This document shows positions 49,794 through 54,819 of a stretch of 64,000 nt of DNA, piece by piece. Source of the stretch: Stylophora pistillata (Eukaryota); contig NW_019218006.1 in the NCBI RefSeq assembly GCF_002571385.2, positions 358,140 to 422,139 on the forward strand, in the 5' to 3' direction. How positions within the stretch are numbered: the first letter of the stretch is position 1; every line of letters starts with the position of its first letter. The position numbers and the translations under genes were made by a program. The notes under the pieces are model-generated. The model made no database searches. It worked only from the letters and a program-made list of their open reading frames with translations, and was not told where the DNA came from.

Positions 49794-52172
49794 TCACCAG
49801 TGACAGAGAGCGTGACTCCAAACAATCCCTATGGTCAAAAATAAGTTGACTTGACTGAATTCTGTTGTTGATGCCGTTGATGATGTTCTGATGTTTTTCC
49901 ACGATGTCCCTCTAATGTTTATTTGAGTGGTACTTGTTCTGGTGGCGGAAAAAGTACATCGCGATGGGACAAGGTTATGTGATGACGTCATAGGTGTAAC
50001 AAGCGTAAAAGGCGAATTGTTAACTATAGCAGGAGAGATAGTAAGAAAAAAAACAGATCAAAAACAGAGACAAAATGATCTGGCAAGGAATGAGAGAAAC
50101 GAGTTGAATTAAAAAATTTCAAGGTCAGAATTTCAAAAGCTTTTTCCTTGGAGTCGAGGTATTGTTTGACATGCAGGCGACGGCTGCCATTTTCTGGAAA
50201 TAAATGGCGTCTGTTATAAAGAGAGATGTGTATTTCAGCCCCACAGTTATGCCCTCACTTTCCGTCCAATTCCTTCCACAATGACACACGATCATGGTCT
50301 ACCTCGCAAACTTTCTCAGTGAGGGTTTAGAAAAGGAAGTATTTTGGTGAATTATCCCACGTTTAACCTAACACCCAGAGGGCCTAATTTTTTAGGCGAA
50401 GTTCTCTGGAACGGTAAGTCCTTTTTGCATAGCGATTGGAGATTTGCTCATCGTCAGAGTGAACTAATGGTTCTGTACTGAAGCTTAATGACATACAGTT
50501 GCCTTCTGAATCATAAAACCACTAGATTGGAAAAAAACGCACAAAAGGTACAAAGAGTTAGAGAATAGAATCAGTAAACTAGGTGGATGAACTAAGGTGT
50601 CGGTAAAAATGTGGTGCACTCACGTGAGAGTGAATTCTAAGGTTACCTCGGAACATAGTTAGTAGAGGGGGAATTAAAATTAATCTACCTCACAGTTTCA
50701 GGGGAAGCCAACTTGTGTCAACTTACCACACTGCTTACAAGTCAGCGGGCACTGCTTCTTCATGTTAGGATAATCACAATATTTTGCGTTTTCGGGACAA
50801 TTCGACAAATGATCTTGACACAGAGCTTCTGTCCTATCGCCTACAAAGGGGAAATTAAGGATTATCACCGCTGTGCAACTAGAGGAGAATCTATGGGGTC
50901 TTGGAAAGGAGGCATGTTAGCCACAAAGCTCTTTCGTTAAGGGCCTCTTCTGGTTTAAGGATTTTTATCGCTGTAAATCTTATTACTTAGAGTTCTTACA
51001 AGAGGTTAGACAAAAATAGAGGAGATTTTAGGATTATAGGGGGAGTACGAAAAAATATGGCTGGGAATTCTGCTCGCAAGGAGATGTTTTTAATGTAATA
51101 AAAGTAACTTGTCTCAACGAAGTCGTTCCTTTGAAAAATTAAGGATTTCAGGGGTACTCTTGCTTTATGTAAAACAAACACACAAAAAAAAACCAGTTAT
51201 CTAATTATGCAACGACAGCAATAGGAAGCCGCGCTTGAGTATCATTGCAAAGCGGGATATAACAACAGAAATTTCACCAATTGGAGCGCATTTCGTCCAC
51301 AGTTAAAATTGAACCCTTAATAGGGTTTCTATCGTTTGCTTCGCGTTCTGTACCGGTTAAATTGTTATCATTGCGTTGACAGGTATATCAATGATGCGAG
51401 TTTTGACAGCGGTAAGGTTATGTGTCTTTTATAAGTAGCCTTTCTGATCTGATTATAGAGTAAACAGGCGTTTGTTTAGTAATAAACAAAACAAAAAAAG
51501 ATAAATGTATTTTAAGCATAAATTCATCTCGATCGAGATAACATAAAAGCTCTCAGTCATTTTGGCTCCAGGTGATTGATATTTCTAACGACTAACTACA
51601 AAAGTATTCTACATTTTTACTATTAAGAGCATAATTCAATTATTATGTATGTTATGAGTAGTTTGTCGATTTTGAAACCCAAAAACTCTCAGCTCATGCC
51701 ACTAAACGCAAATCTACAGGAAAATGCTTTAAGACGGGACAAAAAAAAAAGAAAAACACAGTTTGGTGCAATTTGTGATTTTCAGAAACATTTCGTTTAA
51801 CCCTAGCGAGGGATGTAGTTCAGAAATACTCTCCACTTTTTCATTAACACATTGAATAAAGTCATAAGAAAGAGACAACTTTTTCCCGACTTGAAATCTT
51901 GACAAAAAGCTCGAGAAAGCCGTACGATAAGTTGCTGCGATAATTTATCTTCAGATCAGTTCTACGATCAAATCCTCATCTTAAGTAAGAAAGATTTTAA
52001 AAAGGGGACAGACCGACAGAAGACTTATGTGTGGAAAATAAGCTCAAGATGCTCTACAGAACTGTTCATGGGTAATTTTGTGGTAAGTAATTTGTTACAA
52101 ACCTGCCTGTACTTGTCGACTTAGAGGGTGAATAAGGAATATTACGAAGAAAGTCCATTGCGAAAAATCCAT
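49794..52172 (-). CDS. ShKT-domain surface protein B: signal peptide + ShK domain + Ser/Thr stalk + hydrophobic (GPI-signal-like) C-terminus, ~137 aa
   Basis: Exons 52172-52103 (MDFSQWTFFVIFLIHPLSRQVQA), 50840-50727 (GDRTEALCQDHLSNCPENAKYCDYPNMKKQCPLTCKQC) and 50023-49794 (VNNSPFTLVTPMTSS...VNLFLTIGIVWSHALCHW*). Both introns are GT-AG, phase 1. AATAAA at 49730-49725. Confidence 0.75.
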
Positions 52173-52589
52173 GAATGCGGTACTTCCGTTGAAGGTCAAG
52201 TTGGCTTGGTGTGTTACTATTCTATTTTGAGCCGAAATTTCCCATTTAAGAATTCATGGGGAGTATCATATTTCGAAGGGGTAAATAAGTGTATCGAGGC
52301 GCATGATAGCCTGGGTCTCACGTGGTTGCCAAGCCAACGTTCTTCCTGATCGATACACCCTTCTGCCTCGCCTTGTCTTCAGTGACACGTCGTTTACAGT
52401 TCTTTAACTCTCGGAATAAATTGAAACGTAACTTCTTCTAATAACATCGATTTATTTTCAAGAAAACAGATGACGAGAATTGATAAACTCATCTGCTGAA
52501 CGGTGGTTTGCTTACATATTAGTAAATTCGCTATGAAACTAATCCATAGCACAATTACGGGTGAGCTTTGAAAGAAAATGTAAAAATTA

Positions 52590-52801
52590 TTAACCCTTTA
52601 AATCACAAGATCTGATTGCTAATTCTCCCCTCTAGCTGCTACGCAATTCCTTTCTGATTAGTTACTAGAATTTGACGTTAGATCAAGTCATCAACTTCTA
52701 CTTGATAAGTTTGAGTATTCTCATTACCTGTTTACTGAATAGTGTATAGATATTAGAGGGAGAAGTTGCATGTTGATCACTTCTGGGAATGAAAGGGTTA
52801 A
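52590..52801. mobile_element. TTAA-flanked MITE (piggyBac-like ends), best-preserved copy
   Basis: Reads TTAA-CCCTTT...AAAGGG-TTAA; homologous to the 8572 and 24388 copies. Confidence 0.8.
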
Positions 52802-53211
52802 TTAACAGAGCAGAAATGAAAAACGTTGATTTTGTAACGTAATATACAGAGAAATTACTAAAGAGACCTATAAGAAAAATTTAAAGATCATTCTTTCCAC
52901 GGAAAAGTTAAACATAAATAAAGTAGTTTTCTAGTTCGTCCGACCTACTAGTCTCAGATATTTAATTTATTCTTATCTACAAACTGCTCTGCTTAAGCCT
53001 CACAGGGTTACTCTTAAAAAAATGAAAACAAAACAAAAAACAAAACAAAACAAAAAAAACAACTTTATCTTTGGATATTTTGAAAAGCAATCCGTTTGAA
53101 AAAACATATTCACTCTGGAAGCTACGGCAATCAAGTTTAATCCGGTATGGCACTGGTCCGAGGCCAAGGATACTTGTACCAGCCCAGTCGAAAGCAAAAA
53201 TAAACCCATGG

Positions 53212-54819
53212 CTAGGCGTGCGTGACTTCGTCTCTTGCGGTTCTCCGTGTCTTACGCGGCTCAAGTGTTTTTACTTCGTGTTCTTGCCAGGTCTTGGTGA
53301 CACTACCCTTCCTCCTGAGTGACTGTTGAGTTTTCTATGATATTTACATCACGACACTTAGTAGAAGAACGCTCTCATCATTTTGAACAATCACTGTTAA
53401 AGTTACCTCTGTAACAGGAATGCATACATCCACGAGACTGTCGTTATAGCCAAGATATTTGTTATTGATGCAGCTTTTCTGATGGCAATATTTTTTCGCT
53501 TTTTTCTGTCTTCTCCCAAATATTTTGTCCCTGATGCATTATCAGTGGTTTCGGTTGGAAAACTGGAGGAGCGTGGTAAAACATCCCTGGGGCTTTGAGC
53601 CTTGGTGAAGTCATTAAAAAAACTTATTGCTTTTTGCGTCTGTGACACCGAGTAAGTAGCTTGTGTTTTTGCAAGGCTGTATGAAAATGCTTCCAATGTT
53701 TGCGTTCGAGATGGAGCTTGTGATACCGAAGCGGCAATTTGTTCAGGAACCAGGCCGTCAAACGTAGCCGTCGAACTTTGCGGCGGAGTGAAAGTGTGCG
53801 TTGTAGCTTTGGTGGATATGCTTTGCGATGGAGTTACGGACAACGAGGGATGAATTGTGGCTGTAAAGAAAGTAGATTAGTCAGTAAACTAGAAACAAAA
53901 CCTTAAAAAAGCTTTACAAAAATCATGATCGTGATAAATGGGCAAAAACTTAATAACGTACCGCACTGATTACAAGTCCGTGGACACTGCTGCCTTATGT
54001 TGTCGTATCTGCCGCAGTAATTTGCATAATCAGAACACTTGTCCAGTTTATCTTGACACAGTGGTGCTGAAGTGATAAGACATATTTAGACCCTGCTTAA
54101 ACGGATAAATGTCAGGTGTGCACAATGGGACGGCTATTTTTAAGATATTATATTGAGCCTTGCACAAAATTCCAGTGAAACAAAAGAAATCGAAACTCCA
54201 GGATATTTCTACGCGCGATATTTGTTCTGTATTGGCGCAAAGGTAGAAATGTAGGAATATTTTTTCATGTGGGGTCAACAACCCTCCTACTTCTAAGAAA
54301 TATCGAAGTTCTAGAGGAAGAGACACTTCTCCTAACTACGTCATCAAGTTTCCTTTGGGGCATTGTCATTATTGCAAACTATTCTGTTTTATGTTTTCGA
54401 GTCAATTGACGATGCCCAATTATGGTGTCGATTGTTACAGTAATTCCGCCGTAGCGATCGGAAGTTTTTACAAAAATTCCCCTCTGTAACAGATTTTTTT
54501 AGTCATCGTACAGTCCTGTGTAAATTGTTAATGAATTTACTGGTAAACAAAAGATGTAAAAGGATTAAAACTGGGAACGTAGTTACAAATGAGATAAGAC
54601 GTGGAAAGATTTTCCCAAGAATAAAGGGAAAGATCTCTACGACCATTTTGAAAATAATGGCATCTTACTAAGTAGGATTATTCTTAACCCCACTGGAGGT
54701 GCATAGATTGGTTGCATTGATAAAGTTCAAAATCTGCCAGAAATTTTCGGCTTACCTGCTACTGTTAGGTGAGCTGAATAAAAGAATACTGAAAAGAAAG
54801 CAAACTTGGCGAGGTCCAT
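53212..54819 (-). CDS. ShKT-domain surface protein A: signal peptide + ShK domain + mucin-like stalk + TM + short basic tail, ~241 aa
   Basis: Exons 54819-54756 (MDLAKFAFFSVFFYSAHLTVA), 54066-53962 (APLCQDKLDKCSDYANYCGRYDNIRQQCPRTCNQC), 53860-53407 (S/T-rich stalk, RKKR, ITNILAITTVSWMYAFLL) and 53314-53212 (RRKGSVTK...EVTHA*). Introns are GT-AG, phases 1/1/2. AATAAA at 52971-52966. Confidence 0.8.

Follow-up and report, generated by a model that had tools for sequence, protein, structure and literature searches.

Two neighboring genes on the minus strand of a 64,000-nucleotide stretch of Stylophora pistillata DNA (contig NW_019218006.1; this stretch is called the window, and coordinates are positions within it unless another label is given) were analyzed and are referred to here as genes A and B. 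Both genes are real and spliced, and as paralogs they belong to a stony-coral family of proteins in which a single ShK (ShKT) domain is followed by a Ser/Thr-rich stalk and a C-terminal tail of the glycosylphosphatidylinositol (GPI) signal type. The family, which is found across stony corals, is apparently undescribed. We put the probability at about 0.5 that the A and B products are GPI-anchored, mucin-stalked surface proteins whose ShKT domain would serve as the binding module, either in the cell coat or in the layer of mucus. This reading builds on what was observed, namely the exon structure and splicing, the ShK domain, a stalk rich in Ser and Thr, a stop codon right after a weakly hydrophobic tail, and a layout shared across corals.

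Gene structure and transcription

Gene A encodes 208 residues and gene B encodes 137, each in three exons, and all four introns are GT-AG introns of phase 1. The stalk of A comprises 126 residues (31% Ser+Thr) and that of B 50 residues (41% Ser+Thr). The features of the two genes are as follows.

54756..54819, minus strand: gene A exon 1, coding part; signal-peptide-like, as judged by pattern; the transcript reaches at least 54867
53962..54066, minus strand: gene A exon 2; single ShKT domain (Pfam PF01549, 24.5 bits); spliced in a contig of run X5
53403..53860, minus strand: gene A exon 3, coding part; stalk, RKKR motif, putatively eroded GPI-type tail, and stop codon
52436..53402, minus strand: gene A 3' untranslated region (UTR); contigs extend to about 52436; AATAAA at 52971 and 52456
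52103..52172, minus strand: gene B exon 1, coding part; signal-peptide-like; 52% identity with the N-terminus of Pocillopora B
50727..50840, minus strand: gene B exon 2; single ShKT domain (Pfam PF01549, 29.7 bits); exon 2-3 junction in a contig of run X18
49794..50023, minus strand: gene B exon 3, coding part; stalk, predicted canonical GPI-type signal, and stop codon; AATAAA at 49730

Eight of 24 runs were examined for RNA evidence, among them X1, X5, X15, and X18. Gene A is fully spliced: a single X5 contig carries both junctions, joining all three exons, and runs on beyond the stop codon with stalk and tail included, as the first-pass annotation of this DNA had supposed. The encoded protein is identical to the annotated uncharacterized product of LOC111333562 (XP_022794897.1) of S. 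pistillata. The 3' UTR contains a common repeat near 52600-52770, and its longest contigs stop about 260 bases short of the B start codon (52172-52460). The B promoter therefore adjoins or overlaps the 3' end of A, a closeness that may bear on the low RNA level of B.

For gene B, the exon 2-3 junction appears where predicted in one low-depth contig of X18, a run whose kind is not on record. No exon 1-2 junction was seen in the RNA of the examined runs, and exons 2 and 3 had no cover in six other runs examined, which is not taken as proof of silence. Run X15 is DNA-like, with cover in all 30 bins, and its joint between 49557 and 51741 was rejected as a repeat artefact with 20 letters on one side. 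That B is a decaying copy might be argued from its presence in one of the seven examined runs (DNA-like X15 excluded), from its absence from a word-indexed protein collection, and from exon 3, where 10 of 11 variant alleles change a residue, an excess that is not significant (p=0.20). However, the two word-indexed searches without a match, one with exon 3 and one with the ShK exons, prove no absence, because an exhaustive hidden Markov model (HMM) search recovered relatives of B. Decay is further opposed by the intact frame and splice sites, the lack of any stop codon among 12 coding variants from X15 and X18, the correctly spliced X18 contig, and an intact ortholog in Pocillopora verrucosa, and we regard it as very improbable. 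Variant sites in X15 are denser in B exon 3 (8 per 230 bases) than in intron sequence (13 per 1965 bases; p=8e-4), and two of the exon 3 sites carry two non-reference alleles.

Paralogy and distribution in stony corals

The first-pass annotation described A and B as tandem paralogs with related signal peptides and matching intron phases. The two genes are indeed reciprocal best ShK matches in the genome, with domains 55% identical, and the similarity score of their start exons was reached by only 6 of 2000 shuffles. The common intron phase is likewise real but proved to be weak evidence of paralogy, because 23 of 29 sampled ShK-like exons with a donor nearby are also in phase 1. Pairwise similarity of the third exons is not significant (reached by 122 of 2000 shuffles), so the homology of stalk and tail rests on the family alignment. 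Genome searches with A, the ShK exon of B, Pocillopora B, and the family protein P0047 revealed no more paralogs, and no Ser/Thr-rich frame with a GPI-like end was found at 40 other ShK stretches sampled by hand and followed downstream for at most about 4 kb. A tree of 11 rows places A with Pocillopora A (support 100/100) and B with Pocillopora B (98/99), and the duplication therefore predates the split of Stylophora and Pocillopora; the grouping of A with Orbicella and Desmophyllum is weak (81/88).

The exhaustive HMM search returned 25 proteins at E<=0.001, of which 21 were inspected and four long ones were left out. The whole layout was present in seven: A itself, members from Orbicella faveolata, Desmophyllum pertusum, and Acropora palmata (E=6.6e-4), the B-type cluster of P. 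verrucosa, and two others. In Pocillopora the layout is shared by both paralogs. Two further matches are stalk-and-tail fragments; the Porites relatives have two ShK domains flanking a Ser/Thr stretch, with no tail in their models; and the remaining matches are ShK exons read into introns or proteins with multiple ShK domains. No sea-anemone member was recognized among the inspected matches, several of which carry no species name. All nine family stalks measured are 48-126 residues long with 31-46% Ser+Thr, and between Acropora and Desmophyllum the GPI-type tail has been retained but not the stalk. A literature search of open text, with supplements and most subscription papers outside its scope, found no paper for the gene or protein identifiers of the family, and none of the papers pairing ShKT with GPI as whole words concerned it.

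One apparent set of relatives, P0020 and its cluster, was removed after it proved to be the intron-plus-exon-2 frame of Pocillopora A. The corresponding part of A intron 1 (54048-54335, minus strand) is conserved in Pocillopora, where it is called as a 149-residue frame, and this stretch is possibly a regulatory element.

The ShK domain

The six-cysteine ShKT motifs reported in the first-pass annotation were upheld, with Cys spacings of 6-6-9-3-2 in A and 6-6-8-3-2 in B and Pfam ShK scores of 24.5 bits (A exon), 29.7 bits (B exon), and 21.2 bits (full-length A) against a curated cut-off of 20.9. ShK is the sole Pfam domain in A and its Pocillopora ortholog, and the LU three-finger domain gave no Pfam hit on B exons 2 and 3, nor in A or the Pocillopora ortholog. 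Structure-based comparison was less informative: the AlphaFold model of full-length A has a mean predicted local distance difference test score of 36 and no usable fold, the ESM Atlas gave no usable match for A or P0047, and the PDB matches of a three-row profile were discarded as chance hits. Against the PDB, the family profile matches only the ShK domain of MMP23, and that weakly (E=1.5). ShK exons are common in this genome: of 251 candidates 150 were scored, and 127 of these matched.

In the sea-anemone toxin ShK, Lys22 and Tyr23 of the channel-blocking dyad sit six and five residues upstream of Cys4 (PMC5793123). Using this register and the one known for BgK, we scored 20 family ShK domains, near-duplicate alleles included, and 34 other ShK domains of the genome. 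Lys-Tyr/Phe at the dyad position or one later occurs in none of the family domains compared with 3 of the 34 others, in agreement with the earlier remark that A and B lack Lys-Tyr between Cys3 and Cys4. Position -5 from Cys4 holds Asn or His in 19/20 family domains, and in all 20 positions -6, -5, and -4 are free of basic residues; a basic residue three before Cys4 is present in 19/20, compared with 12/34 other domains. The KY noted just before Cys3 of B is present as described but is lost in the ortholog, being replaced by EL, EH, or GH in three Pocillopora B sequences. Net charges of the ShK domains are +1, 0, and 0.

Among Pocillopora rows (five A and three B), 12 of 52 non-Cys ShK columns vary compared with 15 of 233 in stalk and tail (Fisher p=8e-4, with rows that are not independent), a count that mixes species with alleles and is taken at the amino-acid level only. 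The ShK domain of B is identical to its Pocillopora ortholog at 18/31 positions and the stalk at 31/50. There is no propeptide and no dibasic site ahead of the domain, which directly follows the putative signal peptide and precedes the stalk; the N-terminal hydrophobic core closes with small residues in 6/6 sequences checked by pattern inspection. The view that A and B are not classical free venom peptides was supported.

The first-pass annotation likened the pair to lynx prototoxins, and on this view they would be natural modulators whose GPI-held ShKT domain binds a receptor or ion channel of the cell that carries it. We retain this as an unlikely but serious alternative, because engineered tethered peptides of the ShK type work and can block via Arg, and because an anemone ShK-like peptide is neuronal. 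Specifically, the coral layout is that of engineered tethered toxins, which, on linkers of 26-66 residues, block voltage-gated potassium (Kv) channels; ShK is able to block via Arg24 (PMC7056315), and Nematostella ShK-like2 is reported as an endogenous neuropeptide (10.1101/2020.05.28.121442). The basic residue before Cys4 and the MMP23 match, for all its E-value, point the same way. In contrast, the dyad and basic residues at -6, -5, and -4 are missing from all 20 family domains, the KY of B is changed in its ortholog, the ShK domain of B is not conserved above its stalk, the ShK surface of the Pocillopora rows is more variable than their stalk, and AsK132958, a ShKT peptide that likewise lacks the dyad, had no activity on the Kv channels against which it was assayed (PMC5793123). 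Given the absent dyad, the lost KY, and the variable ShK surface, a binding module fits better than a conserved lynx-like modulator, and channel modulation by A or B is unsupported. A related idea, which we consider quite improbable, is that of a natural tethered toxin, in which the GPI-held domain would tune the coral's own channels or receptors via the conserved basic residue while A drifts to release; if true, the pair would represent an extant stage linking endogenous modulators to secreted toxins.

The C-terminal tails

As criteria for a GPI signal, we used small residues at omega and omega+2, a polar spacer of 8-12 residues, 15-20 hydrophobic residues, and no cytoplasmic tail, following PMC10491789, where charged residues in the hydrophobic part are also reported to lower GPI addition. 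The ten tails compared have in common a small-residue run and a polar spacer, and each closes on a stretch of 14-17 residues of moderate hydrophobicity; all ten have a best 19-residue Kyte-Doolittle mean of 0.72-1.63 and only 0-6 residues beyond the hydrophobic core. For A and B, this mean is 1.47 and 1.31, compared with 2.64-3.25 for 4/4 neighboring transmembrane (TM)-like helices, and on a summed insertion scale the family tails score +2.3 to +5.6 and the TM-like helices -2.4 to -5.2. Neither tail is hydrophobic enough to span the membrane. Gene B conforms to the GPI-signal pattern, with a candidate site 28 residues from the end, a spacer of 7-9 residues, and a 16-residue tail. In a test with a profile of six tails, excluding Stylophora and named Pocillopora rows, B scored 29.8 bits and Pocillopora B 22.1, and none of 5195 control frame ends scored as high; the test is not fully independent, because the six training rows came via the profile of A. 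B thus appears to retain a full GPI-type signal.

These results bear on the proposal that one paralog is a type I TM receptor and the other GPI-anchored. Close to its C-terminus, A does carry 15 uncharged residues, and a GT lies just ahead of the stop codon. However, contigs of X1 and X5 read unspliced across this GT (53406), the sole donor near the stop, and gene A is therefore without a cytoplasmic exon in these data; a fourth exon adding a cytoplasmic tail, for which acceptor candidates are present, was rejected on the same grounds. The annotated A protein and its three alleles all stop right after the tail, tail hydrophobicity is about half that of the neighboring TM-like helices, the Pocillopora A ortholog has just 8 uncharged residues ahead of an Arg, and no relative has a cytoplasmic tail. 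The split into TM and GPI anchors is largely refuted and hardly credible now, and the two tails instead look like versions of one GPI-type signal. The broader expectation of a membrane tether fared better, and a tether is likely.

A proposed binding module at the cell surface

Lipid attachment, glycosylation, cell type, and ligand are inferred. The N-terminal peptide would direct the protein into the endoplasmic reticulum, where GPI transamidase would attach the lipid after cleaving at a small-residue site, some 26-28 residues ahead of the C-terminus. The stalk would be O-glycosylated and extended, holding the ShKT domain away from the membrane, and the domain would bind an extracellular partner that shifts over evolution; candidates are microbes, components of mucus or matrix, and proteins on the surface of other cells. 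Shedding would free the ectodomain into the mucus. Most ShK-domain genes of S. pistillata have been reported in cnidocytes and gland cells (PMC8913943), and such genes, together with the nematode ShK mucins (PMC2563036), offer the closest precedents.

Several observations weigh against such a GPI-anchored binding module, in addition to the mixed composition of the Pocillopora variation count. Signal peptide and anchor were assigned by pattern. The tail of A is short of 5 spacer residues relative to the family, the family site leaving a 3-residue spacer and a site further upstream giving 9; an Arg lies inside the hydrophobic tail in 15/15 listed Pocillopora A rows (of an 86-member cluster); the tail profile gives A only 5.1 bits, a score reached by 22 of 5195 controls; and direct similarity of the A and B tails is not significant (726 of 2000 shuffles). 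As for the domain, the basic residue kept at -3 could mark a conserved binding site, the A ShK domain is better conserved relative to Pocillopora (25/34 identical) than the A stalk (69/119), and Stylophora B variants fall mainly in the stalk exon rather than the ShK exon.

Because the A tail is short, low-scoring, and Arg-bearing in Pocillopora, the true contrast between the paralogs would be one of eroded versus intact GPI-type signal, and A is therefore likely anchored poorly or released. The gene A protein may thus be secreted or shed. An improbable but reasonable alternative is that these proteins, chiefly A, are secreted or shed components of mucus, defence, or venom, the tail not anchoring at all or the ectodomain being soon cleaved. 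The eroded A tail and the Arg of its Pocillopora counterpart are consistent with this, as is the furin-like RKKR motif of A (residues 175-178) immediately upstream of the tail; moreover, nematode ShK mucins are secreted (PMC2563036), and ShK-related coral antimicrobial peptides are known (PMC12745922). On the other hand, the GPI-type tail, and not the stalk, is what the family has kept from Acropora to Desmophyllum; the furin-like motif occurs in 1/10 sequences; the near-neutral ShK charges are unlike those of cationic antimicrobial peptides; neither propeptide nor dibasic site precedes the domain; and PMC12745922 reports no ShK neurotoxins from the Acropora and Porites that it surveyed.

Neighboring loci

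Head to head with A, a plus-strand gene at 59337-60180 comprises a Cys-rich exon without a Pfam match, followed by a stalk, a strong TM helix, and basic residues, and is a predicted type I membrane protein. Elsewhere in the window lie minus-strand exons that encode C1 and C2 domains in the manner of protein kinase C (12200-20300), an intronless rhodopsin-family G-protein-coupled receptor gene (29999-30979, minus strand), and blocks of reverse-transcriptase-like fragments alternating with long short-period tandem arrays that produce spurious long frames (34000-48600). Just past the window end are three tandem exon sets (L001:1259-3940, L002:2520-5390, and L003:4137-7300; G000:C223) encoding ApeC (Pfam E<=2e-66) and CUB-type domains, a Ser/Thr stalk, and a strong TM helix, an arrangement suggestive of clustered apextrin-type receptors bound to the membrane. 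The middle set, L002, has a ShK exon in front, and here ShK is found on a true TM protein. Beyond the pair itself, the genome's best ShK match to A and B belongs to L004 (G000:C519:46800-54800, minus strand), where a trypsin-like serine protease gene is followed by a ShK exon.

Comparison with known systems

The nematode ShK/SXC mucins (Toxocara Tc-MUC and C. elegans PHAT) resemble the coral family in combining a signal peptide, ShK, and a Ser/Thr-rich stretch in proteins of a surface lining or coat (PMC2563036); unlike the coral proteins, which have one ShK domain and a conserved GPI-type tail, they are secreted and mostly contain several ShK copies. Sea-anemone type 1 Kv toxins (ShK, BgK, and HmK) share the six-cysteine ShKT pattern but are free peptides of 35-37 residues with the Lys-Tyr dyad (PMC5793123), whereas the coral proteins have no dyad or propeptide and continue into stalk and tail. 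Other coral ShK-type domains outside venom include the two-ShK, mucin-like XP_022806382.1 of S. pistillata (PMC8913943) and AmAMP1 and damicornin (PMC12745922); these are secreted or antimicrobial, and are set apart from A and B by their descriptions rather than by sequence comparison.

MMP23 provides another endogenous ShKT domain (TxD), matched by the family profile at the weak E-value given above. It is a metalloprotease with an N-terminal membrane anchor and no stalk or GPI tail, and its ShK domain is reportedly linked to Kv trafficking. The three-finger protein lynx1 lacks a mucin stalk, whereas only ShK, and no LU domain, was detected in the coral family. Nevertheless, the engineered tethered toxins T-HmK and T-ShK and the lynx1/Ly6 proteins share with A and B the order of signal peptide, small disulfide domain, linker, and GPI signal (PMC7056315).

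To our knowledge, ShKT domains abound and for most of them no function is known, and genes such as A and B should not be listed as venom from the ShK domain alone. Because a single tethered ShKT domain is conserved across stony corals, its partner is open to direct fishing. Should the family modulate a channel, it would be the natural ShK counterpart of lynx1 and the engineered tethered toxins.

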